The position numbers and the translations under genes were made by a program. A model generated the notes under the pieces. It saw only the letters and a program-made list of their open reading frames with translations, had not been told where the DNA came from and searched no databases. This document shows, piece after piece, positions 1-58,127 of a stretch of 64,000 nucleotides of DNA (position 1 is the first letter of the stretch; every line of letters begins with the position of its first letter). Location of the stretch: assembly GCA_963921275.4 (NCBI GenBank), contig OZ001293.3, forward strand, positions 480,001 to 544,000, written 5' to 3'. This stretch comes from an uncultured Hormoscilla sp. (GTDB lineage: Bacteria; Cyanobacteriota; Cyanobacteriia; Cyanobacteriales; Desertifilaceae).

Positions 1-551
1 GCTTCTTACCATATCCGTCCTACGTCTGCATATCCCAGGCATTACCCCAGGCGTTGGCTTCTTAGAACATCCTTCCTCTTCGCGGCTTGCGCTTTACATC
101 TAACTGGTCCAAATGGGGACAGCTCACGTGAGGTTACTTCGTTCCCTAATATCATTTCTCGATGCTTGTAGGCCCCTGCTATACCCCGGGAGTTCTTTGG
201 GTGCGATGCTGGCAATAGATGACTACCAACACTAACTACCATTTTCCCTTTTGGGCCAGCGTATAAGCCTTATTCCGCTGGTTCTATGTAACGAGGCTTT
301 AACAGGTTCGCTTGTTCTAACCATGAGCATCTTTCCTAGCGGCGTCACTGGGTTAGGCTGCCAGCTATCCTACATTTAAGTCCTAGCGGAGCACCACGGC
401 GATGTGACCCCGCAGCACTAAGGACCGGTAGTATCCTCGACCCCCCACACCTGGGGAGAGGGAATTTAACCCCCATGATAACCAGAGTTATCCGGCAAAT
501 GAAACCAGACCAGACTTCACCGTCGCCAGTTTACGCCTGAACGAATCGCAC
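1..551 (-). mobile_element. ORF-less group II intron, lineage A (5' part; runs off the window start), inserted sense in the glutaminase gene
   Basis: Minus strand begins GTGCGATTCGTTCAGG at 551; near-identical to 4874-5793 and 26007-26928; 5' exon ...TAGATG is the perfect complement of the loop CATCTA. Confidence 0.9.
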
Positions 552-1031
552 CATCTAAAACTAGATGGCAATCGGCGTTTTTATTCAGTCACGCAGGTTT
601 TCGCAGCGAGACGAACCATCTGTCCCCGGGAGTAGGGACATGAGGGCGATCGCCCCACTATTAAGCATGGGGTTGCGCGGGAAACCCTCATCTGCACGCA
701 GTTGGGCCAGGGAATTGAAGGGGCGATCGCTCGGTAACATGCCCACGTGGTCAAATACCCTTTCTGCACCCAACTGCTCTAACAAGTATAGCAAAACAAA
801 GGGCTTGACCGCACTCATTAACGAAAAAGACAGGGTCAGGTCTCCAGAGGTATAAATATCACCATTAACATTGCAGATATGCACGGCCAACCAGTCCGGC
901 TGAGCTTCAGCTAGCCCCGGGATATAATCTGGTAGTTGACCCCCCGATCGGGCATGAATTTGTGCTTGCATTACCCAGGCATCAAGTTGCGACTGAGTCA
1001 GGGACTGTAGTCCAGTTGAGGGTACTTTCAT
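552..1031 (-). pseudogene. glsA: Glutaminase, N-terminal part; frameshift/stop near 585, then interrupted by the intron
   Basis: GQLPDYIPGLA, FSLMSAVKPF, PFNSL and PRNPMLNSGAI motifs; only about 150 aa before the lesion. Confidence 0.85.
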
Positions 1032-1036
1032 CTTTA

Positions 1037-2155
1037 CTAATTTATCCCAACAATTTCTGGTAAGCCAGCAAATGCTTCGCCAACCGTTACATAGGGCTTA
1101 AGCTGAAACAGTTCTAACTCAGAACCATGAGTAGGCAGCGGTAAATGAATCATTCCCAGATCCTGGCGGCAACCGAGAAAGAACAAGCGACGCCGTAACT
1201 GGGGAGCCCCGAAATCCGCAGCCAGCAGTACACCCACCGATACATTATAGCCTAAATCCCCCATTTGATGCAAAATCTGTTGATAGAGGCTGCCGCCGCC
1301 CATCCCCTTCAGATTAGATACATTCTCCATCACAAAGAAGGGCGGATTTAACTGCTCTACAAACCGCAAAAACTCAAAGATCATTCTCCCTCGACAATCT
1401 TGTAAACCTCTCTGCTTGCCCGCCTGACTAAAAGCTTGGCAGGGCGGCCCTCCAAATACCAGATCGGGCCCTGCAACTGTACCAGATTTTTCCTGCCATA
1501 GACTTAATGGATCTTCTACAGCGGCAATGTCTTGTTCGAGAACGCAGACAGGAACCTGAAAAAAACCGCTTAAGGTAGCACAAGCATCTTGCCAACTATC
1601 GAGAGCAATGCGAATATCTATGCTGCCTGTATATTGGGCTCCAATATCCATTCCTCCCGCCCCACTGAACAAACTGAAAGCTTTCAGAGTCCGCCATCCC
1701 AAGGCCCGTGCAGCCTTAACCACCTGCTCGAACACGGCCTTGGCTAGAGGCACGGGTACGGCATTACCTACCTGAAGCTGCGTACTTGTTAGCGTCCCCG
1801 CAAATTTAACCTCATCGGGGAAGCCTTGTAAACGAGCTGCCTCTCGCACTGTAATGAAGCGGTTTTCGTAGGGGTGGACAAATTTATTGAAGATATAGCC
1901 CGTCACAGTCAAGGAGGGTCGATCGGGACCGACCCGAATCATTCTCAGGTTTGGTCCTCCCTTCCGGGTTGAGTCATGCTTAACGTAGAATTTAAAGCTC
2001 TCGTGCCAAAGCTCTTCGGGCAAATCCTGCATTTTTTGCCCGATTTTTAGAGCATCGATCCGCCTTTGCACATTGGCTCCCACGCGGCGAGCCACGTGAT
2101 TTGCCACAATTTGGCACGGAGTATTAGAATTGGAAGTTGCGTGCAATCCATTCAT
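1037..2155 (-). CDS. C5 cytosine DNA methyltransferase, circularly permuted (TRD-IX-X before I-VIII)
   Basis: VREAARLQGFPD and QVGNAVP precede LFSGAGG, GGPPCQAFS, ENV and QLRRR. Confidence 0.9.
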   Translation of the reverse strand: MNGLHATSNSNTPCQIVANHVARRVGANVQRRIDALKIGQKMQDLPEELWHESFKFYVKHDSTRKGGPNLRMIRVGPDRPSLTVTGYIFNKFVHPYENRFITVREAARLQGFPDEVKFAGTLTSTQLQVGNAVPVPLAKAVFEQVVKAARALGWRTLKAFSLFSGAGGMDIGAQYTGSIDIRIALDSWQDACATLSGFFQVPVCVLEQDIAAVEDPLSLWQEKSGTVAGPDLVFGGPPCQAFSQAGKQRGLQDCRGRMIFEFLRFVEQLNPPFFVMENVSNLKGMGGGSLYQQILHQMGDLGYNVSVGVLLAADFGAPQLRRRLFFLGCRQDLGMIHLPLPTHGSELELFQLKPYVTVGEAFAGLPEIVGIN

Positions 2156-4873: not shown

Positions 4874-5793
4874 GGTCGGGGTCGAGCTGGGAATCACTCC
4901 CCAACCCTCCAAGAGCGGAACCGGACTTGCGACTTTCACCGCTGGGGCTTGTCCTTAGACATATTGGGTTACCCCGTATTCCCCTTACCCTCTGTAATTT
5001 TACCCCTTATGGTCAATCCTATTGGACCGTTAATGATTTCAGCTCCGGAAGGTATGCGCTGCGCGCACGCTGCGCGATCGCGGAGGGTAGTTCAGCAAAC
5101 CATTCTAGCCGCTCTTCTCTAACATTTCCCCATTCTGGCAATTTATCGGGGCTCTGAACTTTACCCGGCTGAGACTCTAGTCCATATTCATACTTTTGGA
5201 TTTCTCCTAAGTTTTGCGACGTGTTAGGGCTACTTTCACCAAAGGCTTCTTACCATATCCGTCCTACGTCTGCATATCCCAGGCATTACCCCAGGCGTTG
5301 GCTTCTTAGAACATCCTTCCTCTTCGCGGCTTGCGCTTTACATCTAACTGGTCCAAATGGGGACAGCTCACGTGAGGTTACTTCGTTTCCTGGTATCATT
5401 TCTCGATGCTTGTAGGCCCCTGCTATACCCCGGGAGTTCTTTGGGTGCGATGCTGGCAATAGATGACTACCAACACTAACTACCATTTTCCCTTTTGGGC
5501 CAGCGTATAAGCCTTATTCCGCTGGTTCTATGTAACGAGGCTTTAACAGGTTCGCTTGTTCTAACCATGAGCATCTTTCCTAGCGGCGTCACTGGGTTAG
5601 GCTGCCAGCTATCCTACATTTAAGTCCTAGCGGAGCACCACGGCGATGTGACCCCGCAGCACTAAGGACCGGTAGTACCCTCGACCCCACACCTGGGGAG
5701 AGGGAATTTAACCCCCATGATAACCAGAGTTATCCGGCAAATAAAACCAGACCAGACTTCACCGTCGCCAGTTTACGCCTGAACGAATCGCAC
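4874..5793 (-). mobile_element. ORF-less group II intron, lineage A (920 nt), inserted in the last sense codon of the decarboxylase gene
   Basis: GTGCG start; DV-like and DVI hairpins at the 3' end (...CTCGACCCCGACC); no RT ORF. Confidence 0.92.
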
Positions 5794-18004: not shown

Positions 18005-18163
18005 ATAACAGCCGCCCGCCCCCGCCGCCCCAACCCCGCCGCCCCCGCCGCCCCAACCCTAAAGGGTGGGGCTAATTGAACAAAGCCTGCCTGCGCAGGC
18101 TGAAGCAGGAATCAGGATATGATAATTAGGACGCATGTTAATGTAAGAAAGGAGTAACCGGTT

Positions 18164-18400
18164 ATGAAGGGAGCCATGAAGCCAGAACGAGAGGGCGATC
18201 GCATTTACAAAGGGCGCTTTGAAGAACTGAAAAGAGAGGTAATGATTGGAATAAAAGCATCGTCACGGGGTGAGGTAGTAGATGGAGAGACGGCAATTCA
18301 AGAAATTCGGCAGAAGCTCGATCTTCGTTGCCAAGAAGCGTCGGGAGAACATCCGAGGCGGCGCAGTTGGGCAAATTCCGGGGCAAGAAGCATTAGCTGA
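18164..18400 (+). pseudogene. ParD-like antitoxin C-terminal remnant
   Basis: YKGRFEELKREV...RGEVVDGE resembles cyanobacterial ParD tails; N-terminal RHH domain missing. Confidence 0.5.
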
Positions 18401-35403: not shown

Positions 35404-35426
35404 TGTTGCTTCTCCTTGTCTGTCCT

Positions 35427-40673: not shown

Positions 40674-40733
40674 TATAATAGCTTCGGGATCTATCCACTC
40701 TGACCAGAGCCTACTCTCTACTCGGTGCCGACC

Positions 40734-41681
40734 ATGTCTCAAAATAACCGCAACTCTCATCCTATCTTTCTGATCGGGGCGATCGCAGGCATAATAGGTG
40801 CGATCGCAGGAGTAATCGGTACATGCATTGCTGTACTGACTTACCTGGACATCAAACCTGACGAGCTTATTCCTTCTGCTGTCATCCCCACCCCACCGGT
40901 TGACTGGGAAAAGGCGACTCTTGCCAAAACCCTCACCGGGCATTCAAACACTGTCAGGTCGGTCGCGATCAGCCCTGATGGCAAGACTTTAGCCAGTGCC
41001 AGTAATGACAATACTATCAAAATCTGGAGTTTGGAGACATTTCGAGAAATCGCTACCCTCACCGGGCATTCAAGCATTGTCTGGTCTGTGGCCTTCAGCC
41101 CCGATGGCAAGACTTTAGCCAGTGCCAGTTTAGACGATACTATCAAAATCTGGAGTTTAGAGACATTAGGAGAAATCGCTACCCTCACCGGGCATTCTTC
41201 CTCAGTCAGTTCCGTCGCGTTCAGCCCAGATGGCAAGACTTTAGCCAGTGGCAGTTTAACGACTATTAAACTCTGGAGTTTGGAGACATTCGGAGAAATC
41301 GCTACCCTCGCCGGGCCTTCTAACTGGATCCTGTCCGTCGCCTTCAACTCAGATGGCGATGGCAACACTTTAGCCAGTGGTAGTTATGACAAGACTATCA
41401 AAATCTGGAGTTTGGAGACATACCGAGAAATCGTTACCCTCACCGGGCATTCAGACATTGTCTGGTCTGTCGTGTTCAGCCCCGATGGCAAGACTTTAAC
41501 CAGTGCCAGTAATGACAATACTATCAAAATCTGGAGTTTGGAGACATACCGAGAAATCGCTACCCTCACCGGGCATTCAAACTATGTTTAGTCCGTTGCC
41601 TTCAGCTCAGATGGCAAGACTTTAGCCAGTGGCAGTGATGACAAGACTATCAAGATTTGGCGGGCAGGAGCAAGCAAGTAA
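40734..41681 (+). pseudogene. Membrane-anchored WD40 repeat protein, in-frame TAG at 41589
   Basis: TLTGHS...SVAFSPDGKTLASAS.D.TIKIW repeats continue past the stop. Confidence 0.85.
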
Positions 41682-42206: not shown

Positions 42207-42280
42207 GGTGCCTCTATCATACTGGATCGGGCAGGAGTATGTTATCCTAGGAAGAGAAGATTCAGATGGAGGGATAGTTT

Positions 42281-43214
42281 ATGAAAATTAATTTTATTAA
42301 TTTAAAACATTATTTTACCTTAAAAAAATCTTTGGTTCCGAGCAAAGCAAGGAAATTCTCATCAGCTTCTTAAATGCTATGCTCTATGAGGATAAAGAGA
42401 CAATTTCTGATTTGACCATCATTAACCCCTATCAGGCTCCCCGACTGCGGGGACTCAAAGATACTTACTTAGATGTCAAAGCTCAGTTGGTCGATAACAA
42501 GACAGTGATTATCGAGATGCAGGTGTTAAATTTGGAAGGTTTTGAGAAGCAGATTTTGTACAATGCGGCTAAAGCTTATTCCATTCAACTAGATGCCAGA
42601 GAAGATTATACCCTGTTAAATCCAGTAATTGCTTTGACGATTACGGACTTTAACATGTTTGCGTAATTCTCAAAAGTCACTTCCAAATTTGTCTTGAAAG
42701 AAAAGTAATTTCTGAGCGATTACCCTGTTGATGATATTGAGTTGGTGTTTGTGGAATTGCCTAAGTTTAACAAAGAATTGGAGAACTTGGAGACCACAGC
42801 AGATAATGGCTTTATTTTCTCAAGACTGCCAGGAAATTATAGACAGTACCCGAGACAATGTCCTCAGTTCCGGAAATAAAGAAAGCCTTTGAAATTGCGA
42901 ATATCGCCAATATGAATGCCTCAGAATTGGAAGATTTGGAAAAACGGGAAATCTATATCCACGACCAGCGAAATGCGCTCAAAAAGGCAGAAAAAAAGGC
43001 CAAAAAAGAAGGTCGCGAAATTGGACTCAAGGAAGGTAAAGAAATTGGGATGAAAGAAGGTCGCGAAATTGGGATCCAAGAAGGCCAAGAAATTGGGATG
43101 AAAACATCTCAAGAGGAAATCGCTAAGCGGCTACTTGATGTTTTAGATGAAGAAACGATTAGTCTGACTACAGGACTCAGCCTTGAGGATGTGCAAAAGT
43201 TGAAACTAGATTAA
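42281..43214 (+). pseudogene. Rpn / PD-(D/E)xK nuclease family, copy 1 (frameshifts and three stops)
   Basis: Paralog of 43348-44259 with lesions. Confidence 0.9.
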
Positions 43215-43347
43215 TTTTCACGCTCGCCGCGATCTATTCTTAAATGTACAAACCAGGTTTTTCTCAAAATATGGTTTGTACATGATTATCAATCAAGAAT
43301 ATGTTATACTAGGAAAATAAGAGTCAAATGGAGGGATAGTTAAGTTA

Positions 43348-44259
43348 ATGAAGATTAGTTTCATTAATCCTAAGACAGATTTTGCCTTTAAGAAAATCTT
43401 TGGTTCCGAGCAAAGCAAGGAAATTCTCATCAGCTTCTTAAATGCTATGCTCTATGAGGGAAAAGATATAATTTCTGATTTAACCATCATTAACCCCTAT
43501 CAAGCTCCCCGACTGCGCGGACTCAAAGATACTTACTTAGATGTCAAAGCTCAGTTGGTCGATAACAAGACAGTGATTATCGAGATGCAGGTGTTAAATT
43601 TGGAGGGTTTTGAGAAGCGGATTTTGTACAATGCGGCTAAAGCTTATTCCATTCAACTAGATGCCGGAGAATATTATACCCTGTTAAATCCGGTAATTGC
43701 TTTAACTATTACGGACTTTAACATGTTTACAGAATTCTCAAAAGTCACTTCCAAATTTGTCTTGAAAGAAAAGGAATTCCTGAGCGATTACCCTGTTGAT
43801 GATATTGAGTTGGTGTTTGTGGAATTGCCCAAGTTTAACAAAGAATTGGAAAACTTGGAGACCATAGCAGATAAATGGCTTTATTTTCTCAAGACTGCCA
43901 GGAAATTAGAGACAGTACCCGAGACAATGTTCTCAGTTCCGGAAATCAAAAAAGCCTTTGAAATTGCGAATATCGCCAATATGAGTCCCTCAGAATTGGA
44001 AGATTTGGAAAAACGGGAAATCTATATCCACGACCAGCGGAATGCGATCAAAAAGGCGGAAAAAAAGGCCCAAAAAGAAGGTCGCGAAATTGGACTCAAG
44101 GAAGGTCGCGAAATTGGGATCGAAGAAGGCAAAGAAATTGGCATGAAAACATCTCAAGTGGAAATCGCTAAACGGCTGCTTGATGTTTTAGATGAAGAAA
44201 CGATTAGTTTGACTACAGGACTCAGCCTTGAGGATGTGCAAAAGTTGAAACTAGATTAA
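43348..44259 (+). CDS. Rpn family recombination-promoting nuclease, copy 2 (intact)
   Basis: NPKTDFAFKKIFG, YLDVKA, IIEMQV, FVELPKF, EG(R/K)EIG repeats, TTGLSLEDV. Confidence 0.92.
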   Translation: MKISFINPKTDFAFKKIFGSEQSKEILISFLNAMLYEGKDIISDLTIINPYQAPRLRGLKDTYLDVKAQLVDNKTVIIEMQVLNLEGFEKRILYNAAKAYSIQLDAGEYYTLLNPVIALTITDFNMFTEFSKVTSKFVLKEKEFLSDYPVDDIELVFVELPKFNKELENLETIADKWLYFLKTARKLETVPETMFSVPEIKKAFEIANIANMSPSELEDLEKREIYIHDQRNAIKKAEKKAQKEGREIGLKEGREIGIEEGKEIGMKTSQVEIAKRLLDVLDEETISLTTGLSLEDVQKLKLD

Positions 44260-44520
44260 TTTTCACGCTACGCTCGCCGCGATCTATTCTTAAATGTACA
44301 AACCAGGTTTTTCTCAAAATATGGTTTGTACATGATTATCAATCAAGAATATGTTATACTAGGAAAATAAGAGTCAAATGGAGGGATAGTTAATGAAGAT
44401 TAGTTTCATTAATCCTAAGACAGATTTTGCCTTTAAGAAAATCTTTGGTTCCGAGCAAAGCAAGGAAATTCTCATCAGCTTCTTAAATGCTATGCTCTAT
44501 GAGGGAGAAGATACAATTTC

Positions 44521-45458
44521 ATTAGGGGTCGAGCTGAGAATCACTTCTCAACCCTCCCGTATGGCTGCGCCACGCTGCGCGAACGGAACCGTGCATGCGA
44601 CTTTCACCGCACACGGCTACTGGGTATCAGGCCCAAATCATGGGTAGAATTACTAAGGATTACTCCCGTTGTCCCTTGCTACTTACACGTTTGCCCCTTG
44701 ATATTCATTCCTCATCCACAATATGGACGGGCCTATGACGTCTTAAGGCTACTTGCATCAGTAGTTTCCTAATATCACCGACCCGCGTCTGCGTATCCGT
44801 GGGCATTACTCGGCGTCTTCCGCATGCTCTTGTCCTGAAGGACACGGCTGGCGCTCCCGCAAGGGATACGGCATGCTCCAGACACCTTCGACGTCTGGAG
44901 CATGCTCTTGTCCTGAAGGACGCGGCATGCTCCAGACGTCGCCCAGGCATTAGCTTCTCGGGCCATCTCTCCCATACGTGGCTTGCGCTATGCGCTGCGC
45001 GCACGCTACGCGGACGCACATCTGACTGGTCCTGACGGACAGCACACGTAGGGTTACTTCGTTCCCCGGTATCATTTCACGATGTCTTTAGGCCTCACTT
45101 TACCCCGGCAGTTCTTTGAGTACGATATTGGCCCAAAATCAAAGAGCCAATACTAACTACTTCCCCTTTTGGGCCAGCGCTTAAAGCCTTATTTCGCTGG
45201 TTGATGGTTACGAGGCTTACATGAGTTTGCTTGTTCTGGCCATATACATCTTTCCTAGCGGAGTTGCCGGCTTAGGCTACCAGCTATCCTACATTTGAGT
45301 CCTCGCTTAACACCACGGCGATGTGGCTCCGCCGCATTGAGGACCGGTGTCACCCCCGCACTTGAGGGAGGGGAATTTAACAATAATGAGTACCAGAGTT
45401 TCTAGTTTCCTAGACTAGCGTTCCGTGTTTGACTACGTTAGGCTAGAACGAATCGCAC
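44521..45458 (-). mobile_element. ORF-less group II intron, lineage C (938 nt)
   Basis: GTGCG start; canonical DV TAGCCGTGTGCGGTGAAAGTCGCATGCACGGTTC; end CTCGACCCCTAAT. Confidence 0.92.
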
Positions 45459-46114
45459 ATTAGGGGTCGAGCTGAGAATCACTTCTCAACCCTCCCGTAT
45501 GGCTGCGCCACGCTGCGCGAACGGAACCGTGCATGCGACTTTCACCGCACACGGCTACTGGGTATCAGGCCCAAATCATGGGTAGAATTACTAAGGATTA
45601 CTCCCGTTGTCCCTTGCTACTTACACGTTTGCCCCTTGATATTCATTCCTCATCCACAATATGGACGGGCTTATGACGTCTTAAGGCTACTTGCATCAGT
45701 AGTTTCCTAATATCACCGTTCCCCGGTATCATTTCACGATGTCTTTAGGCCCTCACTTTACCCCGGCAGTTCTTTGAGTACGATATTGGCCCAAAATCAA
45801 AGAGCCAATACTAACTACTTCCCCTTTTGGGCCAGCGCTTAAAGCCTTATTTCGCTGGTTGATGGTTACGAGGCTTACACGAGTTTGCTTGTTCTGGCCA
45901 TATACATCTTTCCTAGCGGAGTTGCCGGCTTAGGCTACCAGCTATCCTACATTTGAGTCCTCGCTTAACACCACGGCGATGTGGCTCCGCCGCATTGAGG
46001 ACCGGTGTCACCCGCACTTGAGGGAGGGGAATTTAACAATAATGAGTACCAGAGTTTCTAGTTTCCTAGACTAGCGTTCCGTGTTTGACTACGTTAGGCT
46101 AGAACGAATCGCAC
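45459..46114 (-). mobile_element. Lineage C intron, second head-to-tail copy with an internal deletion of about 281 nt
   Basis: Same ends; lacks the segment equivalent to 44781-45061. Confidence 0.9.
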
Positions 46115-46989
46115 TGATTTAACCATCATTAACCCTATCAAGCTCCCCGACTGCGCGGACTCAAAGATACTTACTTAGATGTCAAAGCTCAGTTGGTCGA
46201 TAACAAGATAGTAATTATTGAGATGCAGGTGTTGAATTTGGAGGGTTTTGAGAAGCGGATTTTGTACAATGCGGCTAAAGCTTATTCTATTCAACTCGAT
46301 GCTGGAGAAGATTATACACTGCTGAATCCAGTAATTGCTTTGACGATTACGGACTTTAACATGTTTGCGGAATTCACAAAAGTCACTTCCAAGTTTGTCT
46401 TGAAAGAAAAGGAATTCCTGAGCGATTACCCTGTTGATGATATTGAGTTGGTGTTTGTAGAATTGCCCAAGTTTAACAAAGAATTGGAAAACTTGGAGAC
46501 CATAGCAGATAAATGGCTTTATTTTCTCAAGACTGCCAGGAAATTAGAGACAGTACCCGAGACAATGTCGTCAATTCCGGAAATCAAAAAAGCCTTTGAG
46601 ATTGCGAATATAGCCAACATGAGTCTTTCAGAGTTGGAAGATTTGAAAAAACGAGAAATCTATATCCACGACCAGCGAAATGCGATCAAAAAGGCAAAAA
46701 AAGAAGGTCGAGAAATTGGGATCGAAGAAGGCAAAGAAATTGGCATGAAAACATCTCAAGTGGAAATCGCTAAACGGCTGCTTGATGTTTTAGATGAAGA
46801 AACGATTAGTTTGACTACAGGACTCAGCCTTGAGGATGTGCAAAAGTTGAAACTAGATTAATTTTCACGCTCGCCGCGATCTATTCTTAAATGTACAAAC
46901 CAGGTTTTTCTCAAAATATGGTTTGTACATGATTATCAATCAAGAATATGTTATACTAGGAAAATAAGAGTCAAATGGAGGGATAGTTA

Positions 46990-47865
46990 ATGAAGATTAG
47001 TTTCATTAATCCTAAGACAGATTTTGCCTTTAAGAAAATCTTTAATTCCGAGCAAAGCAAGGAAATTCTCATCAGCTTCTTAAATGCTATGCTCTATGAG
47101 GGAGAAGATACAATTTCTGATTTAACCATCATTAACCCCTATCAAGCTCCCCGACTGCGCGGACTCAAAGATACTTACTTAGATGTCAAAGCTCAGTTGG
47201 TCGATAACAAGACAGTAATTATTGAGATGCAGGTGTTGAATTTGGAGGGTTTTGAGAAGCGGATTTTGTACAATGCGGCTAAAGCTTATTCTATTCAACT
47301 CGATGCTGGAGAAGATTATACACTGCTGAATCCAGTAATTGCTTTGACGATTACGGACTTTAACATGTTTGCGGAATTCACAAAAGTCACTTCCAAGTTT
47401 GTCTTGAAAGAAAAGGAATTCCTGAGCGATTACCCTGTTGATGATATTGAGTTGGTGTTTGTAGAATTGCCCAAGTTTAACAAAGAATTGGAAAACTTAA
47501 AGACCATAGCAGATAAATGGCTTTATTTTCTCAAGACTGCCAGGAAATTAGAGACAGTACCCGAGACAATGTCGTCAATTCCGGAAATCAAAAAAGCCTT
47601 TGAGATTGCGAATATAGCCAACATGAGTCCCTCAGAGTTGGAAGATTTGGAAAAACGAGAAATCTATATCCACGACCAGCGAAATGCGATCAAAAAGGCA
47701 AAAAAAGAAGGTCGAGAAATTGGGATCGAAGAAGGCAAAGAAATTGGCATGAAAACATCTCAAGTGGAAATCGCTAAACGGCTGCTTGATGTTTTAGATG
47801 AAGAAACGATTAGTCTGACTACAGGACTCAGCCTTGAGGATGTGCAAAAGTTGAAACTAGATTAA
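46990..47865 (+). CDS. Rpn copy 4 (intact)
   Basis: Paralog with a shorter repeat linker. Confidence 0.92.
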   Translation: MKISFINPKTDFAFKKIFNSEQSKEILISFLNAMLYEGEDTISDLTIINPYQAPRLRGLKDTYLDVKAQLVDNKTVIIEMQVLNLEGFEKRILYNAAKAYSIQLDAGEDYTLLNPVIALTITDFNMFAEFTKVTSKFVLKEKEFLSDYPVDDIELVFVELPKFNKELENLKTIADKWLYFLKTARKLETVPETMSSIPEIKKAFEIANIANMSPSELEDLEKREIYIHDQRNAIKKAKKEGREIGIEEGKEIGMKTSQVEIAKRLLDVLDEETISLTTGLSLEDVQKLKLD

Positions 47866-47923
47866 TTTTCACGCTCGCCCCGATCGTTTCCTGGTGAGGT
47901 TGGGTTAATGCACGAAACCCAAC

Positions 47924-48109
47924 CTACAGATCGCCTCCCGACCTTGCCTCTATTAGCTTTCGCGCCACATCCCGGGCTATTGACAAGGTTTCAGTAATGG
48001 TTCTTCCCTGTGCGACCAACCCTTGCAGATCCTCAGAGGTTGCCAGATAAACTCCTTCTGGTAGTTTTTCGATCTGGATATTCAGCAATCTTTCCATGTA
48101 GTTTTTCAT
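47924..48109 (-). CDS. HicB-like antitoxin
   Basis: LPEGVYLATSEDLQGLVAQGRTITET. Confidence 0.8.
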   Translation of the reverse strand: MKNYMERLLNIQIEKLPEGVYLATSEDLQGLVAQGRTITETLSIARDVARKLIEARSGGDL

Positions 48110-49132
48110 CTCTTACCCTCTCGTTACCCTCTCATCCTCTCGTTCCCAGGTTCTACCTGGGAATGATTATCTGGAGGCTCCCGCCTCCAATAAGCGCATC
48201 TGTGCTGATTGAAGTATCTCATGTCTTTAATCAAAATAGCCCGATCGCACCTGGAGGCTGAGCCTCGGGTTTGCGTTCCCAGGCCGAGCCCGGGAACGAG
48301 TTAATTAGTGCGATCGCACCTGGAGGCTGAGCCTCGGGTTTGCGTTCCCAGGCCGAGCCCGGGAACGAGTAATTTTGACAGATGATATTAGCTTGATGCG
48401 GTTTTGTTTCTTTTTTACAATTTTTTTAGTCGGTTTTAATCGACTTTAGCTATTAGCCGGGGGTTTGCAACTCCCGGCGGGCCGGCGAAGAGACAGAATT
48501 ATTGAATTTTTTTATTCTGTTATTTCCGCCGCGATCGCCTTACCAATTTCCAGAGAAGAAGTCGCCGCAGGGGAAGGGGCATTGCAAACATGGATAGCAT
48601 TTTGGCCCCGGACAATGAGAAAATCCTTCACCAGGGAACCATCGTTCTTTAATGCTTGGGCGCGGACACCCGCCTCAGAGGGAACCAAGTCTGCTGGGGT
48701 ACATCTCAGTTAGGCGATAAGTAATTATACTTAGTGCTTGTCTCCCTCAAAACGGTACATAATTTAGGCACTGTTGACCACCCTTGACCCATGAACTCCC
48801 AAAAGCAGGCTGAACTCCAGCAACATCTTGACGCGATTGCCGCGATTCTCTACCAGGAAGCCGACCCCACTGAACTCACCACCCTTGAAGGCATTGAGAA
48901 AAACGTTCGTGCGCTTGCCCAAGAACACGTCTGGCCTCAACTAGGAATTTTTTTATCAACACGGCGACTTCCCGCCGCACCGGAAAACAGCGCACCCTGA
49001 CCAGTATCCTGGGCAAACTAACCCTCACCACTGCTCAAGCCCAACAACTGCAAGTTAAACCGGGAACTCGTTGGAGTCCGTATGTGGAAAAATGTTGTTG
49101 GGTCGTCAGTGCCAATGCCTCTTACCAGAGAG

Positions 49133-50879
49133 CCGATTTTTCGGGCCGTCCGCGGACCATACAAGATCTCGCGATGCTGACTGGGGTGAGCATCTCCCAC
49201 AGTACGCTCCAACGCTTTGTTCAACGAGAGGACTGGTCTGAGGTAGTGCGATTCGTTCCGGCATAAGCCAGTAGGTGAAAGTCGGGTCTGGCTCTATCAG
49301 CCAGATAACTCTGGTTATCATGGGGGTTAAATTCCCCTTCCCCAGGTACGGGGGTCGAGGGTACTACCGGTCGGAGGTGCTGCGGAGTCACATCACCGTG
49401 GTGTGGAGCGAGGACTTAAATGTAGGATAACTGGCAGCCTAAGCCGGTGACGCCGCTAGGAAAGATGTTAATGGTTAGAACAAGCGAACCTATGTAAACC
49501 TCGTTAACCAGAACCAGCGGAAGAAGGCTTATGCGCTTGCCCAAAAAGGGAAATGGTAGTTAGTATTAGCTCTTGCCTCTGGCTAATAACGTACTCAAAG
49601 AACTCTCGGGGTATAGTAGGAACCTAAAAGCATCGCGAAATGATACCAGGGAACGGAGTAACCTCTCGTGAGCTGTCCCCATTTGGACAAGTTAGATGTA
49701 AAGCGCAAGCCACGAAGAGGAAGGATGTCCTAAGAAGCCAACGCCCGGGGTAATGCTTGTGGATATGCAGACGTAGGACGGATATGGTAAGACACCCTTG
49801 GGAAAAGTAACCTTAATGTCACAGAACTAGGAAGAAATTCCAAAAGTACGAATCTTGGATTCAAATCTTAGCCAGGTAAAGTTCAGAGCCCCTACGAAAA
49901 GCGGAAAGCAGAATGGGGAAGATGTTAGTAAAGAGCGGCGAGTATGGTTTGCTGAACTATCCTCCGCGAACCTTCCGGAGCTAAGTACTTAAACGGTCCA
50001 ATAGGATTGACCATAAGGGGTAAAATTTCAAAGGGTAAGGGACAACGGGGGTAACCCCCAGTAATCCTACTGATGACAGCAGCTTACCAACCAGTAGCCG
50101 TGTGCGGTAAAAGTCGCTCTTCAGGTTTCGCTCTTGGAGGGTTGGTACGTGAGTACCAGCTCGACCCCGACCAAGATAGCTGAACCGATTCAGGAGCTCA
50201 GCTTGGATGGCGGCATGATTCGCCTTCGTACCGATTTTTCGGGCCGTCCGCGGACCGTGGAGGGTCAACCTGGTGAGTGGCGAGAATACAAAGCCTTAAA
50301 TGTCCATGAGCAAGGCAGTGTGGCTTTCTTCAAGGATAATCAAGGGCTGCTTGAGTGGGTGAATGCCCAGCCCCTAGGGGCGCAGTTCACCGGTCTCGGA
50401 GATGGTCATGATGGGGTGTGGAACATTTTCAGTGGTATCGGGACACCAGAACAACGTATCGAAGTGCTCGATTGGTATCACCTAATGGAAAATGCCAATA
50501 AGGTGCAAGGGACACCGGCTCAATCCGATTTTTCGGGCCGTCCGCGGACCGTGCAGATCCGATTTTTCGGGCCGTCCGCGGACCGTGCACTCCTGTGGCG
50601 AGGGGAGACCCAGAGGGCGATTAGTTATCTGCGCCAACAGCAATGTCGGGGAGCCACAGGGTTGATCAACTACTTGAAGCACCATCAGACGCGCATCATT
50701 GACTACCAGGCTAGCCCTCCTGGCGTCGGGCCGCTGCGCGAACGGGCAGGCAGCTCGGCACTCGATTGGCTCTGGTCGGGTTGAGTCCCTGGTGAAACAA
50801 ATTGGGTTAAGGGTGAAATTACCGGGGGCACAATGGCGAGCCGAGAATGTGCCGATTTTTCGGGCCGTCCGCGGACCGT
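49133..50879 (+). repeat. Five copies of CCGATTTTTCGGGCCGTCCGCGGACC(G/A)T (49133, 50231, 50525, 50559, 50852)
   Basis: Identical short inserts within the transposase. Confidence 0.9.
49246..50172 (+). mobile_element. ORF-less group II intron, lineage B (927 nt), inside the IS transposase
   Basis: GTGCG...CTCGACCCCGACC; removal restores WSEV|KIAEPIQELSLDGG. Confidence 0.9.
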
Positions 50880-52079
50880 AGGTGTTGAAGCATCGCTGTG
50901 CCTACCTGAATGGCGCATTAGTTGCCTAATCAGACTCAGTAAATCCACTTTTGCTGAGTAAATATACTCATCGCCTAACTGAGATGCACCCGTCTGCTGC
51001 TTGCACTTCGGGAATCAACTTTTGCAAGCTGCGCACAAACGCTGCTTTACTCGCAGAACGAATCATTTCTTTAATTCCTTCTGCGGCGTACTTGCTTGTC
51101 AATTTCCAAAAGCCAGGGTATGTTATTACCTCCGCCAAGTCTCTGGGATCGAAATCTGTCTTTTTATAACCTTCCCGCTTCAGACTCAGAACTGCATTTG
51201 GTCCCGCGTGGATGCTACCATCGATCATTCTGGTAAAATGGACCCCCAGAAAGGGAAAGTCCGGATGGGGTACCGGATAAATTAAACCCTTGACTAGATC
51301 CCGTTTCTCTGGTATCAGTTCGTAATACTCTCCCCGAAAGGGCACGATCTTCGCCTCCGGGTCAACTTTACCTAATTTTGCCACCCGATCGCTATACAAA
51401 CCGGCGCAGTTAACGATCCAGCGAGTCGGAAAACTCCCCCGATTAGTTTCTAGCACTTGCGTGCTGCCTTTGTCAAGGATTTTCTCCACCTTAGTATTCA
51501 GACAAAGTTCCGCACCTTGTTCCTTGGCTATTTCCGCATATTTTTGACAAACTTGTCCATAGTCAACTATGCCCGCAGTTGGCACTTGGATCCCTGCTAT
51601 ACAGCTAACATGGGGTTCGATCGCCCTCACCTCGTCGCCGCTAATTTTGGTCACCGAGAGGCCATTTGCCAAACCCCGCTGATAGATATTTTCCAGGCGG
51701 ATCAGTTCCGACTCTTCTGTCGCCACAATTACCTTACCGCAAATCTCATGGGCAATGCCATGGTGCTGACAGAATTCTACCATCGATCGATTGCCGTCGC
51801 CGCAAAACTTAGCCTTAAAACTCCCCGGTTGATAATATATCCCAGAATGGATCACCCCGCTATTGTGACCGGTCTGGTGAACGGCCAGACTGGATTCCTT
51901 TTCTAACAATAGAATTTTAGCATGAGGATAGTGCTGACCCAATGCCATTGTCGCCGATAATCCGACTATGCCGCCACCGATAATAGCCAAATCGTACATC
52001 ATATCATATCCGTTTGAGCGACCACATCAAAAAGGGATCCGGGGGATCGGAAAGTATGTGCAATTACCCGAATTTGATA

Positions 52080-54252
52080 TCATTCGTAAAACTGGATTAT
52101 TTCCCCAAAATTTGCTTCACCGTATTCCACCCAGGCGATACAATTTCCGACGGCGTCGTACAATTCGATCGTATCTCCATGATTGCGCAAACTCATCGAG
52201 TCCGTGCGATTCGTTCTAGCCTAACGTGGTCAAACACGGAACGCTAGCCCGGTTTCATTAGCCAGGAACTCTGACCGCATGGGGGTTAAATTCCCCTCCC
52301 CCCAGGTACGGGGGTGACACCGGTCCTCGGTGCTACGAAGCGACATCATCGTGGTGCTAAGCGAGGACTCAAATGTAGGATAACTGGCAGCCTAAGCCGG
52401 TGACGCCGCTAGGAAAGATATCCAAGGTTAGAGCAGGCAAACATGTGCAAGCCTCGTTATAAGGAACCAGCGAAATAAGGCTATATGCGCTGGCCTAAAA
52501 AGGAAATGGTAGCTAGTATTAGTTTTAGACTCTGGCTAATATAGTACTCAAATAGCTCCCGGGGTATAGTGTGGACCTAAAGGTATCGCGAAATGTTGTT
52601 AGGGAACGAAGTAACCTCTCGTGTGCTGTCCATCAGGACAAGTTAGATGTTAAGCGCAAGCCACGGGGGGAGGGATGGCCCAAGAAGCGAATGCCCGGGG
52701 TAATTCCTGGGATAACATCTACAGTAATGTAGATGATGCTGGGTAGCCAGCGCTGACGTGGGTCGGTGATACTAGGAAGCTGCTGGAATGAGTAATCCTA
52801 AAAAGCCACGGAACTAATCCGAAACGCAAGTGGAGGATAAGGTATGGATAACTGGTAAAACTGACTTGAAAATGGTGATACTAACGGTTATCAGAACAAC
52901 CACTCGCTAAACCAGGAAAGGGAAGAAAAGACAGGCGGCAAGGGCTAACGGAAGTAATTCCTATTAAGTCTACCTATGAAAAGGGCCTAGTACCCAGTAG
53001 CCGGATGCGGTGAAAATCGCAAGTCCGGTTCCTCAAGGGAGGGTCGGGAAGCGATTCCCGGCTCGACCCCATCCAGACTCGATCTAGTCACCCGAAACCG
53101 CTTCACTTCCCCGGAGGCGATCGCGCCATCAAGTGGTTCCGCCCCACTATAGCTATCGCGCATTTCCCAACCTGTCAAGTCGATCGCTTCGGAACTAATA
53201 TTTTTCAACTCCACCCATTCCTTACCTTCATCCCGCCCGCGAGGGTCTGGTAAAGCCGCATAGATGGCGATCGGGCCATTTTTCTTTCCGAGCGTGCTAT
53301 CCGATCGTAGCACGCGGGGCACATTTCCCATAAATATCGGGAAAAACGAGCGAATATAAACACCTTTGCTGCCATCTAGTTCCGTATTTCTCAACAGCAC
53401 TAACTTATAATTAGCATCATCAAGGGTCGTGCGCTGACTATCCTCTCTCAGCATACCACACAAGCTTTCATAATACATCACCGTCCCCATTGCTATTTCG
53501 CATTCCGGACTCGTGCCCACAAAGAACCCACTCTCTTCCTTAAACAGTTTTGCGATCTGGTTTACCTGCTTATCCGCGTAATTCCACTCCATCTGTAACG
53601 TGACCATCCTAGGATTTTTCGCCCCCGCGTCTCCTTGCCGATAATACTTATAACCCCAATAATTTACTCGCTTCTTTTTCTCATCCAGGTAAAATTTAAT
53701 CCACGAATGATACCCCGATACTTTTCCCTGACTTACCTCCTCCCTGAATCCTTGATAATACCTGCCTTCCCCCACAAATGTATGTTCAAACCCCGACGCA
53801 TATTCAGTCCCATTTCCATAGTAATAGTTAGTATAGGGCTGAAACCAAATTTGGTACAACTTTTCTCGAAATTATAACTCCGATAGGTTAATCCTCAAGT
53901 CCTTGCCGATGTAATCAAAGGCGATCGCCATCGGTTCCGTTGCCACGATCGCATCCATAAACTCATTAATTTCCCTCGCTTCTGCCTCCGTCATCTCCTC
54001 CGTTCCTCTGGTGCTGATCACATAATTATCCAAAAGTCTCATAAAACTTTTATAAGTTGGCCCGCCAAACTTCTCCTCATTTACCCGATAGAAGAGAGGA
54101 CGATCTGCCAGAGTGCGATCGCCCGAAGCTTGCACCTGTTCGTCCAGGAGAATATCAGCATTTTCATTCTCCCATTCTCCCGACTCCTTGCGAGATGATA
54201 CGGATAATTGATTGCGATCTCCGTCCCAAAGCCTTTGATAAATATCGCTCAT
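52080..54252 (-). pseudogene. EndoU/XendoU-like endoribonuclease fused to a lamin-tail domain; in-frame stop at 53872 and an antisense intron
   Basis: LLDNY, SGFEHTFVGE, SGYHSW, FFVGTSPECE; LTD EWVELKN...IDLTGW, completed by LRNHGDTIELYDAVG beyond the intron. Confidence 0.82.
52204..53074 (+). mobile_element. ORF-less group II intron, lineage D (871 nt)
   Basis: GTGCG start; canonical DV TAGCCGGATGCGGTGAAAATCGCAAGTCCGGTTC; end CTCGACCCCATCC. Confidence 0.93.
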
Positions 54253-54347
54253 TCATCCAACCTCCTAAGCAATTCACAACTGACAACTAACAACTGACAA
54301 CATCCAAATCTAGTAGAATCGATGGTGGGCAATGCCCACCCTACATG

Positions 54348-55370
54348 CTAACGAAACATGCTGCTGACCGAACTATCCTCATGGATACGCCAGATCGTCT
54401 CCCCGAGCAAATTAGCTACCGAAAGTACAGTTAGTTGTGCAAACCGTTTTTCCTGTGGCACTGGAATAGTATTAGTCACGATCACCTCTTCAAACACAAC
54501 GCTAGAGAGGCGTTCAATTGCTGGAGGGGAAAAGACAGCATGAGTCGCACAGGCATAAACCTGACGTGCCCCCACTTCCCGCAGCATCCTAGCACCTTCA
54601 CTGATTGTACCAGCGGTATCAATCATATCGTCTACCAAAACAGCAGTTTTTCCCTTTACATCCCCAATCACATTTAAAACTTCCGCCACATTGTGAGATT
54701 GGCGTCGCTTATCAATGATTGCCAGAGGTGCATCATCTAGCTTTTTAGCAAAAGCTCTCGCTCTTGCTACCCCACCCACATCCGGGGAAACCACTACAAT
54801 ATCAGATAGTTGCTTGCTAGCCAGATAATCCAGCAGGACGGGAGAGCCGTAGACATGGTCGAAAGGAATATCAAAATAGCCCTGGATCTGGGCTGAGTGC
54901 AAATCCATCGCCAGAACTCTACTGGCTCCAGCTTCTACAATCAGATTCGCCACTAGCTTAGCAGTAATCGATTCCCGCCCAGCCGTTTTGCGATCGGCCC
55001 TAGCATAGCCATAATAGGGCAGCACCGCCGTAATCTGACGCGCCGAAGCCCTACGGCTAGCATCAATCATAATCAGCAATTCCATCAAGTAGTCGTTGAC
55101 TGGAGAGCAACTTGGCTGTATTAGGTAGACATCGCAGCCTCGGATTGATTCTTGAATTTGCACGTAAATCTCGCCATCGGCAAAGCGTTTGCGAATCATC
55201 GGTCCCAAATCTAAGCCCAGGTAGCGAGCCACCTCTTGAGACAGAGGAACATTAGCCGAGCCAGAAAACAGCCGCAGACGGTTATTATCGCTAATGGTTG
55301 GTATAGTCGGCGGCATAGTCAAGGTTGCAGAACGGATCACAATAGTGCCTCGAAGCGCATTCATCGCCAT
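54348..55370 (-). CDS. prs: Ribose-phosphate pyrophosphokinase
   Basis: FADGEIYV, PYYGYARADRK, VVSPDVGG, VDDMIDTAGT. Confidence 0.97.
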   Translation of the reverse strand: MAMNALRGTIVIRSATLTMPPTIPTISDNNRLRLFSGSANVPLSQEVARYLGLDLGPMIRKRFADGEIYVQIQESIRGCDVYLIQPSCSPVNDYLMELLIMIDASRRASARQITAVLPYYGYARADRKTAGRESITAKLVANLIVEAGASRVLAMDLHSAQIQGYFDIPFDHVYGSPVLLDYLASKQLSDIVVVSPDVGGVARARAFAKKLDDAPLAIIDKRRQSHNVAEVLNVIGDVKGKTAVLVDDMIDTAGTISEGARMLREVGARQVYACATHAVFSPPAIERLSSVVFEEVIVTNTIPVPQEKRFAQLTVLSVANLLGETIWRIHEDSSVSSMFR

Positions 55371-55537
55371 CTTATCATGCTCGCTCTTATAACATGCTCT
55401 CTGATTTTTCTGATATTTTTATATTTATGTGAAGCGCACCGGTTACAATTATTCAATATTTCTTAAGAGTTGTGAACTGCTGCCCGCTAACTTTGTCTAG
55501 CATATGCATGTCATATTTTTACGCTAAGGATCGGCTT

Positions 55538-55996
55538 ATGAGTCTGAAAGACCGCATCACAGAGGACATCAAAACGGCTATGAAGTCCAAGGATAAAGTC
55601 CGTCTGGAGACAGTCCGCAGCATTAAAAAGCTGCTATTGGAAAAGGAAGTCAGCGTCCGCCCTCAAGGTCAAGAGGCCCTGACGGAAGCCCAAGAACTGG
55701 AAGTGCTGGCCCAGCTAGCTAAACAACGGCGGGAGTCGATCGCACAATACCGCCAAGCGGGCCGCGAGGACTTGGTGGCACAAGAATCTCAGGAACTGGC
55801 AATCATCGAGGAGTATCTACCGCGCCAGCTGTCTGATGAGGAGGTGGCTGCCATTATCGATGAGATTATTGCCCAGGTGGGTGCTAGTTCTCCGAAAGAT
55901 ATGGGCAAGGTGATGGGACAGGCAATGCAGCAACTGAAGGGTCAAGCGGATGGCAAGAAGGTACAACAGTTGGTGAAAGCTAAGTTGGGGGGCTGA
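55538..55996 (+). CDS. GatB/YqeY domain protein
   Basis: KQRRESIAQY, EEYLP.QLS, DMGKVMG. Confidence 0.92.
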   Translation: MSLKDRITEDIKTAMKSKDKVRLETVRSIKKLLLEKEVSVRPQGQEALTEAQELEVLAQLAKQRRESIAQYRQAGREDLVAQESQELAIIEEYLPRQLSDEEVAAIIDEIIAQVGASSPKDMGKVMGQAMQQLKGQADGKKVQQLVKAKLGG

Positions 55997-56176
55997 GTTC
56001 CTTCCCCTTGCCCGGGCCAGTTAGCACCAGTTGGCAATCTCGACTTTCGATCCGTTGTATGTTACTCTGAATGGTCAGGGATGGCGATCGCCCGTTCGGC
56101 ACCAGACTGGCGATTGCCATCCCCCCACCCCTATGGCGGTGGGGCTACTCGAATATCACCCGCCTTACCTATTTAT

Positions 56177-58127
56177 ATGTTCAAGTTCAAAAAAATCCTC
56201 GCGCTTATCGGTCAAACAGCTTTAATCGGTTTAATCTCATTAGGATTGACAGAAATCGCCTTCCGAGTATACAATAAAATTAACCCCAGTTTTATTTTCT
56301 ACGATCGGTCATACAATCGCTTTCGCGGCAAACCCAAGGCCCTGGACTATGATTTCACCTTAAACTCAAAGGGGTTTAAGGATGTTGAATTTAACCAGAA
56401 AAAATCTTCAGGTATATACCGCATATTAGGGATAGGCGATTCCTTTGCTTATGGAGTGGTTTCGTATCAGTACAATTACTATACTCGCGTAGAATAAAAA
56501 CTGAATCAACGAGAGAAAAAATTTGAAATCATTAATATGGGGATTCCCAACTTGGGGCCGAAAGATTATCTCTCAATTTTGGTGAATGAAGGATTGGAAT
56601 TAAATCCAGATATGGCGATCGTCAGTTTTTTCATTGGCAATGATTTTTCCGATATGCAACCTACCAGAAGCCTATATTCATATGTAGCCTCATTTATTAA
56701 GTTTGCGATCGACCTGCAGAAAAGCTATGAAGGACGGCAGATTCACGGAAATATGGTATATGAAGATGACCGACCGAGTATGGAGGCAGAAAAATTTTTG
56801 GAAATCCAAATCAACAGAAGCTATATTCACCTAAAGCAAAATGAATATTTCGAGAATCAGCTCAAGTCAGCAGTCAGTTATTTAAGCAAAATCAAGGAAA
56901 TATGTGATGCCAAAAATATTGATTTTTTGGTAGTAATAATTCCTGACGAGTTACAAGTAAACGAAAAATTGCAATCTCAAGTAATTCAAGCATTAGAATC
57001 TCATCCAGATAATTTTGATTTTACACTACCAAATCGATTGTTGTCTCGGGAACTGGAAAGTGAAAAGATTGAATATCTAGACATGTTAAGTGAGTTGAAG
57101 TCGGTTTCTCAATCGAAAAGAGTTTGTGCGATTCGTTCTAGCCTAACGTGGTCAAACACGGAACGCTAGCCCGGTTTCATTAGCCGGGAACTCTGACCGC
57201 ATGGGGGTTAAATTCCCCTCCCCCCAGGTACGGGGGTGACACCGGTCCTCGGTGCTACGAAGCGACATCATCGTGGTGCTAAGCGAGGACTCAAATGTAG
57301 GATAACTGGCAGCCTAAGCCGGTGACGCCGCTAGGAAAGATATCCAAGGTTAGAGCAGGCAAACATGTGCAAGCCTCGTTATAAGGAACCAGCGAAATAA
57401 GGCTATATGCGCTGGCCTAAAAAGGAAATGGTAGCTAGTATTAGTTTTAGACTCTGGCTAATATAGTACTCAAATAGCTCCCGGGGTATAGTGTGGACCT
57501 AAAGGTATCGCGAAATGTTGTTAGGGAACGAAGTAACCTCTCGTGTGCTGTCCATCAGGACAAGTTAGATGTTAAGCGCAAGCCACGGGGGGAGGGATGG
57601 CCCAAGAAGCGAATGCCCGGGGTAATTCCTGGGATAACATCTACAGTAATGTAGATGATGCTGGGTAGCCAGCGCTGACGTGGGTCGGTGATACTAGGAA
57701 GCTGCTGGAATGAGTAATCCTAAAAAGCCACGGAACTAATCCGAAACGCAAGTGGAGGATAAGGTATGGATAACTGGTAAAACTGACTTGAAAATGGTGA
57801 TACTAACGGTTATCAGAACAACCACTCGCTAAACCAGGAAAGGGAAGAAAAGACAGGCGGCAAGGGCTAACGGAAGTAATTCCTATTAAGTCTACCTATG
57901 AAAAGGGCCTAGTACCCAGTAGCCGGATGCGGTGAAAATCGCAAGTCCGGTTCCTCAAGGGAGGGTCGGGAAGCGATTCCCGGCTCGACCCCATCCACAA
58001 ACCTCAAGATACCCACTGGAATATTGCCGGAAACGAGTTGGCAGCAGAAATGATTTATAATATCTATCAGAGAATGCCGAATTATGAATACATTATTGAT
58101 TACGGGAACGGATACGGATGCTGGTAA
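56177..58127 (+). pseudogene. SGNH/AlgX-like hydrolase; in-frame stop at 56495 and a sense intron at 57126-57996
   Basis: NSKGFKD, IGDSFAYG, FIGNDF; spliced KRVYKPQDTHWNIAGNELAA. Confidence 0.82.
57126..57996 (+). mobile_element. ORF-less group II intron, lineage D (871 nt)
   Basis: Nearly identical to 52204-53074. Confidence 0.93.

Follow-up and report, generated by a model that had tools for sequence, protein, structure and literature searches.

The closest described counterpart of the introns reported here is found in Thermosynechococcus elongatus, where 28 group II intron copies, 17 of them lacking an open reading frame (ORF), fall into six families, and where three routes of proliferation, namely retargeting of the exon-binding sites (EBS), the action of driver intron-encoded proteins (IEPs) on ORF-less introns, and insertion into mobile elements, were demonstrated by experiment, as far as the available portions of that report extend (Mohr, Ghanem & Lambowitz 2010, PMC2882425). 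Arthrospira platensis, with 101 group II introns, holds the largest number given in the accessible part of a survey (Miura et al. 2022, PMC8919778). Excerpts of two further reports describe a twintron in Trichodesmium (PMC4649490) and a hypermobile intron of plant mitochondria that invades itself (PMC7049729). Here, we describe a 64-kb stretch of the chromosome of an uncultured cyanobacterium, Hormoscilla sp. (assembly GCA_963921275.4, contig OZ001293.3, forward strand, positions 480,001 to 544,000; hereafter the window, 64,000 nucleotides in full), which contains eight ORF-less introns of subclass IIB. A first-pass annotation had listed eight ORF-less group II introns in four lineages, and exactly eight were found: three of lineage A, one of B, two of C and two of D. 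All eight very probably belong to one large family that proliferates in this chromosome by means of a reverse transcriptase (RT) supplied in trans.

The likeness to T. elongatus, judged from the portions of the report cited above, extends to several features. Its ORF-less TeI3 and ORF-containing TeI4 introns, of subclass IIB1, likewise comprise families that differ in their EBS and pair well with their intron-binding sites (IBS), with the ORF-less set forming one group; insertions there also lie in insertion sequence (IS) elements and in other introns (twintrons); and the closest solved structure to a 609-aa frame of the present genome is the T. elongatus TeI4h RT (PDB 6ME0_C, E 1.2e-113). ORF-less IIB introns of T. 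elongatus are mobilised by the IEPs of related introns, a route that we extend to the present family by analogy.

The same portions also reveal differences. The copy number here is roughly 15-fold higher, and 47 EBS combinations stand against six families. Few copies lie in genes in T. elongatus, whereas 151 of 290 sites here fall in open frames, 60 of them antisense. ORF remnants are clear in TeI3; in contrast, a tblastn search for RT remnants in 44 lineage representatives of the ORF-less introns here returned a best E value of 0.68, which is no evidence of any. Some lineages here also carry a non-canonical domain V (DV), and thermophily of the present host is not established. The parallel with the ORF-less expansion of Thermosynechococcus drawn in the first-pass annotation is thus borne out as to kind, on a larger scale.

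Like A. platensis, as described in the accessible part of the survey, the present organism is a cyanobacterium with a large load of chloroplast-like (CL-type) and ORF-less group II introns. The A. platensis count resembles in order the 91-117 intron-end motifs of other genomes of the present genus, whereas the 408 motifs or 451 intact 5' ends counted here are about four times as many, the counting methods being different. Nesting of the kind in the excerpted twintron and self-invasion reports occurs here too, lineage D within itself included, but as one outcome among hundreds of non-autonomous insertions. In the literature searched, whose coverage was incomplete and left subscription journals mostly outside, no report was found of group II introns reaching several hundred in a single bacterial genome. 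The kind of element is already known; what is new is the degree, namely about 15 times the T. elongatus number, about four times the survey maximum, 47 specificities, and frequent insertion into open frames.

Eight introns and their guides

Copies were located by repeat finding, sequence reading and motif positions, with coordinates corrected by the EBS3/+1 analysis described below and by an empty-site joint. They are listed with window position, strand, length, guide positions, number of pairs formed with the 5' exon (IBS1 and IBS2), and the first base of the 3' exon (+1).

1-551, minus: A1 (lineage A), the 5' 551 nt of an element of 935 nt (chromosome 479617-480551); EBS2 284-288, EBS1 216-221, EBS3 181; IBS1 TAGATG 6/6, IBS2 3/5, +1 A
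4874-5793, minus: A2 (lineage A), 920 nt; EBS2 5528-5532 (5/5 with exon CTATG), EBS1 5460-5465, EBS3 5425 (T, with +1 = A); IBS1 TGGTTG 5/6, IBS2 5/5, +1 A
26007-26928, plus: A3 (lineage A), 922 nt; EBS2 26270-26274, EBS1 26337-26342, EBS3 26377; IBS1 GTGATG 4/6, IBS2 4/5, +1 A
44521-45458, minus: C2 (lineage C), 938 nt, standing head to tail with C1d and downstream of it, so that the 3' end of C1d is its upstream flank; IBS1 0/6, no IBS2, +1 G
45459-46114, minus: C1d (lineage C), 656 nt, upstream member of the pair; IBS1 AAATCA 6/6, IBS2 GATGG 5/5, +1 G (against EBS3 = A)
49246-50172, plus: B (lineage B), 927 nt; EBS2 49507-49511 (5/5 with CTGGT), EBS1 49574-49579, EBS3 49614; IBS1 GAGGTA 6/6 with one G-U pair, IBS2 5/5, +1 A
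52204-53074, plus: D1 (lineage D), 871 nt, with domains V and VI (DV/DVI) at 52996-53072; EBS2 52460-52464, EBS1 52527-52532, EBS3 52567; IBS1 5/6, IBS2 3/5, +1 A
57126-57996, plus: D2 (lineage D), 871 nt, with DV/DVI at 57918-57994; EBS2 57382-57386, EBS1 57449-57454, EBS3 57489; IBS1 6/6, IBS2 3/5, +1 A

All eight begin with GTGCGATTCGTT, which includes the GTGCG start already annotated, and end in ...GCTCGACCCC plus four nucleotides. Intron-matched bases amount to 6,665, or 10.4% of the window, and a BLAST comparison of the four lineages with the genome yielded no extra intron fragments in it. The annotated range of 870-940 nt fits seven copies (871-938 nt, A1 being cut by the window edge) and fails for C1d, from which about 282 nt are deleted internally, from the end of domain I to domain III. 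The three A copies are about 99% alike, and D2 differs from D1 at one position. C2 has a canonical DV that an insertion separates from DVI.

To locate the guides, domain I was aligned for 326 ORF-less copies from the whole genome, and every column was scored against every exon offset for five-base pairing in a blind scan. The best partner of exon positions -1 to -6 (0.87 paired) is the variable loop that had been named as EBS1, a guide of 6 nt. A second signal (0.82 paired) identifies EBS2, a guide of 5 nt that lies about 67 nt upstream of EBS1 and pairs with exon positions -13 to -9; the background over all other columns and offsets is about 0.6. In a consensus fold of the 44 lineage representatives, the EBS1 hexamer forms the terminal loop of a domain I hairpin with compensatory changes in all eight stem pairs, so that fold position and blind scan agree on the loop. 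The conserved loop AAATAAGGC was rejected as EBS2, because it is constant while the exons vary and the scan places EBS2 about 10 nt upstream of that hairpin.

Guide and target covary throughout the genome. For this test, 281 copies with unique flanks were reduced to one copy per EBS combination (n = 47 EBS1/EBS2 combinations) and subjected to 10,000 permutations. EBS1 pairs with its own exon at 5.21 of 6 positions and with exons of other lineages at 2.65 of 6, and EBS2 at 4.11 of 5 and 2.26 of 5, respectively; none of the permutations matched the observed pairing sum for either guide. The covariation of loop and 5' exon that the first-pass annotation had read from the window, where the lineage D exons are GAGTTT and GAGTCC, therefore holds genome-wide, and each pairing it quoted was correct on re-reading, with C2 as an exception it did not mention. 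Its attribution of retargeting to the EBS1 loop is right for EBS1 and incomplete, since EBS2 and EBS3 retarget as well.

EBS3, a single nucleotide, is a domain I column 35 nt downstream of EBS1. The base that follows ...CCCCATCC varies across 120 unique D flanks (A in 73%), while the letters before it are invariant; because the column covaries with that base across lineages, the base is exon +1 (IBS3) and the column EBS3. The +1:EBS3 pairs are A:T in 27 of 28 cases, C:G in 7 of 7 and T:A in 10 of 13, with none formed in the three cases in which +1 is G. The nucleotide that pairs with +1 is thus separate from EBS1 and not adjacent to it, as in subclass IIB; subclass IIA uses delta-delta' next to EBS1 in place of EBS3.

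Group II introns are recognised by a 5' GUGYG, by a DV of about 34 nt with an AGC triad, a 2-nt bulge and a GNRA loop, and by a following DVI with a bulged A. The consensus fold comprises 135 pairs, 97.4% of them canonical. Compensatory changes occur in 72 of the 135 pairs as against 12-19 when the 3' partners are slid as a control, the structure having been predicted from the same alignment used to score covariation. Genome-wide, 451 of 460 matches to a hidden Markov model (HMM) of the 5' end start at or before model position 3, every ORF-less copy has a DVI with an A (the branch A) nine nucleotides from the 3' end, and at least 12 of the 13 DV pairs are canonical in 272 of 331 ORF-less copies.

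The window copies differ in their DV. All 13 pairs are canonical in lineage D, 10 in B, and 7-8 in A1-A3, in which the 5' strand of DV and about 25 nt upstream of it have been replaced. Among the window copies, only D1 and D2 (44.4 bits) pass the gathering score of 40 for Rfam RF00029 (DV/DVI); the C copies give a partial, sub-threshold match of 38.6 bits, with DV/DVI recognisable by eye, and A1-A3 and B give none at E<=1. The DV/DVI ends previously ascribed to all eight are consequently confirmed for D, partially matched for C, and not cleanly recognisable in A and B, whose DV departs from the canonical form, and the Rfam D1-D4 models, which had been suggested as a check, match no window copy at E<=1. 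Every testable defining feature of ORF-less IIB introns was found, with the DV of lineages A and B as the caveat.

Seven DV-altered A copies with the EBS1 loop CATCTA are 99.3-99.7% alike at seven different unique sites, which indicates that they moved once DV had already changed. In its altered form, the 110-nt tail is 96.7-98.6% alike between sub-lineages that are only about 85% alike in domain I, and the canonical tail is likewise shared; 3' modules have therefore been exchanged between lineages. Lineages with a variant DV that still spread are new.

Genome-wide numbers, empty sites and landing sites

HMMs of the first and last 120 nt were scanned over the genome, and the ends were paired into elements. 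The scan yielded 451 intact 5' ends and about 400 intact 3' ends, every one of them chromosomal, from which 346 elements could be paired, in 63 clusters at 90% identity; 326 of the elements are of ORF-less size (740-1100 nt). Intron-related sequence occupies 530,958 of 7,034,909 bases (7.55%). Lineage D has 137 copies, E, which is absent from the window, 74, B 17, A 14 and C about three; copies with unique flanks number 120 in D, 64 in E, 14 in B and 14, the full set, in A. Mean pairwise differences are 0.24% for D, 0.96% for E, 2.5% for B and 4.3% for A, and 61 of 136 D copies are identical to the D consensus. Lineage D is very young.

The density of one intron per 8 kb previously noted is accurate for the window but is no genome norm, since eight 5' ends per 64 kb are about twice the genome mean of 4.18, a level of at least eight being found in 10 of 108 bins. 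Exact matches to a 13-nt 5'-end motif number 408 in this genome, compared with 92, 117 and 91 in three genomes of the same genus and two in a fragmented fourth; the reversed motif, used as a control, has a count of zero. A ranking of 151 genomes of the phylum by RF00029 matches was rejected as a measure of copy number, since no more than 29 candidates are scored in each genome and the counts saturate (29 in the present genome, 29 and 28 in two others).

Empty sites provide a second measure of recency. When contigs of public sequencing runs were aligned to window positions 49000-58600, those of runs X5, X6 and X9 joined 57125 to 57997 exactly, so that precisely the 871 bases of D2 are missing and no letter is added or shared at the joint. 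The X5 and X9 contigs lack D1 too, with a 3-nt ambiguity due to a repeated TCC. Over several kb, the identity of these contigs to the window is about 94-95%; they come from a relative about 5-6% divergent and occur in a coral metatranscriptome (X5) and a sponge metagenome; because the same joined form appears in a DNA-type run, the joints are empty sites and not spliced RNA. A close relative without the D1 and D2 insertions thus lives in such samples. A joint over intron B in run X1 was not used, as it lies in a duplicated IS context. The earlier observation of insertion without target duplication agrees exactly with the D2 joint and, within three ambiguous nucleotides, with that of D1; recent mobility, likewise proposed, is supported by these precise empty sites and by the D copies identical to their consensus.

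Removal of each window intron in silico restores an open frame, and family scans that name the hosts substantiate the description of near-identical copies in unrelated genes and in both orientations. A1 lies sense in a glutaminase gene, whose Pfam Glutaminase profile is matched at positions 1-117 upstream and 140-286 downstream of the intron. A2 lies sense, 26 codons ahead of the end of a lysA-like decarboxylase fragment. A3 is sense between the ATG and the second codon of a 62-codon antitoxin-like ORF, translation of which would therefore depend on splicing. B lies sense inside an ISKra4-family transposase gene, and a copy of a PDDEXK_2 (Rpn-like) gene holds the C pair in antisense orientation. 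D1 is antisense in a gene with XendoU and lamin-tail domains (53075-53859 and on, minus strand), of which it cuts off the last 41 codons, and D2 is sense in a 252-codon ORF that matches no known family (56537-..-58127).

Several of these hosts have features of their own. The glutaminase gene parts lie at window 552-1031 (minus strand) and chromosome 479174-479616. About 35 nt upstream of the A1 5' splice site and adjacent to an A5 run, the frame is broken: the stop of the N-terminal ORF is at 585-587, and a second frame, which runs across the junction, begins immediately after 589-591. The break marks either a pseudogene or a homopolymer assembly error. The antitoxin-like ORF (weak VapB-family match, 22.9 bits against a cut-off of 60) and a following Fic/Doc ORF (27139-27489) form a putative toxin-antitoxin pair at 26929-27489. 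The C introns stand in tandem among four copies of a unit of about 1 kb (42275-47994) that encode PD-(D/E)XK 'transposase' (PDDEXK_2, Rpn-like) genes, two of them full (43348-44259 and 46990-47865), one partial (46193-46861) and one disrupted.

Compared with open frames of at least 120 codons, 290 unique ORF-less sites are sense in 91 cases, antisense in 60 and in no frame in 139; among 2,000 random positions, the corresponding numbers are 681, 623 and 696. For D alone, 37 sites are sense and 31 antisense.

Intron sequence lies on at least one flank of 53 of the 326 copies; 26 are cleanly nested in another intron, and true tandems occur too. Lineage D forms self-twintrons at its own position 768/769, which holds a good copy of the D target (CCTATTAAGTCT|A), at least four times (for example chromosome 1326652, 4742825, 5180973 and 6030547). 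As exon +1, G is second commonest for D (17 of 117), and G can wobble-pair with EBS3 = U. A resident copy keeps IBS2-IBS1 intact at its 5' junction and would offer its own G1 as +1, so that re-insertion at that junction would give tandems whose upstream member is the newer. The C pair fits this model, because IBS1 and IBS2 are perfect for C1d and absent for C2.

The window holds other repeats. At 28587-28761, 8.3 copies of a 21-nt unit (GTCACGCAACTTTATTGCAGA; 96% matches) lie between ORFs; at 34346-35518 there is a 291-nt tandem repeat (3.9 copies, 84%); and at 40929-41660, 5.8 copies of a 126-nt repeat correspond to the WD40-type repeat of the ORF at 40725-41591. A 247-nt direct duplication (97%) at 18357-18851 has a third partial copy, 65% alike, 5 kb away at 23943-24103. 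A CRISPR array at 18079-18102 was rejected, the Rfam CRISPR-DR28 match being weak (E 0.61) and the adjoining repeat being this duplication.

Probable source of the reverse transcriptase and competing explanations

RT genes exist only elsewhere in the genome. None of its 75 GIIM and 93 RVT_1 six-frame matches falls within 480001-544000, as the first-pass annotation had stated for the window. Genome-wide there are 73 RT-like open frames of at least 250 aa, 23 of at least 540 aa and 15 of 591-609 aa. The 609-aa frame compared above with TeI4h contains RVT_N, RVT_1, GIIM and HNH domains and a YADD motif, and scores 356 bits against TIGR04416 (cut-off 300). RT-bearing introns are about 2.4-2.5 kb long, and about 60 copies align over more than 1.5 kb. 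Several RT ORFs are shortened to 486 aa by a lineage D copy, which stands antisense and always at the same position.

RT-bearing and ORF-less introns can be aligned only at the domain I core and DV/DVI (72-89%). In a domain I tree (midpoint root, support values left aside), the longest internal branch separates all 44 ORF-less representatives from all 39 RT-bearing introns; because the two fall into separate groups, there is no near-identical RT-bearing parent of the kind that had been expected, and RTs are encoded only in the separate, distant group. From this tree, the ORF-less family appears to be an old non-autonomous group, which would depend on a distant RT-bearing sister group as short interspersed elements (SINEs) depend on long ones (LINEs).

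We propose the following mechanism. Each copy carries a ribozyme with a 5' GUGCG, domains I-VI and a branch A nine nucleotides from the 3' end, together with the guides EBS1, EBS2 and EBS3. The excised intron RNA would reverse-splice into DNA wherever exon positions -13 to -9, -6 to -1 and +1 pair with the guides, and the inserted RNA would then be copied into DNA by an RT/maturase, which would act in trans because the family lacks an ORF. This enzyme is likely to be encoded by the 15 open frames of 591-609 aa (RVT_N, RVT_1, GIIM and HNH, TeI4h-like), which lie in the more distant ORF-containing introns. New lineages would arise by guide mutation, giving the 47 EBS1/EBS2 combinations, and modules are also exchanged between lineages. 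Because pairing is tolerant (mean 5.2 of 6 and 3.8 of 5), insertion would be possible into unrelated genes on either strand, into IS elements or further introns, and next to copies already resident.

Several observations weigh against this reading. All RT-bearing introns are distant from the ORF-less family, so that the RT would need to work on RNAs only fairly remotely related to its own intron. DV is non-canonical in lineages A and B, which is expected to impair catalysis, and the 5' flank of C2 has no IBS match. The 60 of 290 unique sites that are antisense in frames of at least 120 codons could not be spliced from the host mRNA, although sense and antisense calls based on open frames instead of gene predictions are a crude measure. 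As to splicing and lariats, a search for sequencing runs yielded no RNA run of this strain, and the sole RNA run examined (X5) is from the relative that lacks D1 and D2.

Since A and B copies with a broken DV have still spread, the seven near-identical A copies at seven sites among them, a division of labour was considered in which the protein and possibly part of the catalytic RNA too are supplied in trans, lineages A and B borrowing DV or an active ribonucleoprotein from copies whose DV is canonical, of which there are more than 270. We regard this as a speculative and rather unlikely extension of trans-mobilisation.

The altered DV of A and B can also be read in the opposite sense, namely that the copies are inert relics, the products of old insertions and segmental duplication with no current trans-mobilisation. 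Such a history would accord with the mean differences of 4.3% and 2.5% within A and B, with the internal deletion of C1d, and with the 17 of 137 D copies that share flanks in duplicated contexts. It is nevertheless improbable, given that the 61 consensus-identical D copies belong to a lineage found at 120 different flanks, that relatives only about 5-6% divergent lack D1 and D2, that 408 exact 5'-end motifs compare with 91-117 in three genomes of the genus, that 15 RT frames of 591-609 aa remain open, and that the CATCTA copies of lineage A, almost identical to one another, occupy unique sites.

A second alternative concerns the enzyme. The distance of the ORF-less family from every RT-bearing intron would be explained if the mobilising RT were not a group II IEP but another host RT, such as a retron, a defence-associated RT (DRT) or that of a diversity-generating retroelement (DGR), or if reverse splicing were followed by RT-independent repair; a group II ribozyme that integrates itself without protein has been described, at least in the available part of one report (PMC11754743). 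However, strong RVT_1 matches nearly all co-occur with GIIM inside group II introns, non-intron RTs not having been surveyed singly, and splicing and mobilisation of ORF-less IIB1 introns by related IEPs is a documented route in the portions cited for T. elongatus (PMC2882425), which makes a non-IEP origin of the activity very improbable. Scarcely credible is DNA-level spread through a transposase or recombination, with exon complementarity as a by-product: although ISKra4 and PDDEXK_2 (Rpn-like) genes lie beside or around introns B and C and the shared tails (96.7-98.6% alike over a domain I about 85% alike) attest to recombination between copies, the elements lack terminal inverted repeats, no target is duplicated, the joint at the empty site is exact, ribozyme helices are maintained by compensatory change, and covariation at three separate guides in 47 combinations has no DNA-level explanation.

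What an intron swarm makes testable

In the standard model, spliceosomal introns are traced to the invasion of a host genome by group II introns; to our knowledge, bacterial examples of such invasion are small, comprising tens of copies. With several hundred copies in one cyanobacterial chromosome of free-living size, it can be tested directly what such a swarm costs, how it is tolerated and how it is controlled. The natural EBS1/EBS2/EBS3 combinations, 47 in all on a single ribozyme scaffold, furthermore constitute a data set on the rules of retargeting, of relevance to thermostable or compact targetrons. For annotation, RF00029 detects some lineages only and the D1-D4 models detect none, so that hundreds of split or truncated 'genes' are to be expected in the annotation of such genomes. 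If DV or an active ribonucleoprotein were in fact supplied in trans to lineages A and B, these introns, in the most intron-laden bacterial genome among those found described, would represent a step taken across a whole bacterial chromosome in the direction of splicing that is fragmented, trans-acting and spliceosome-like.

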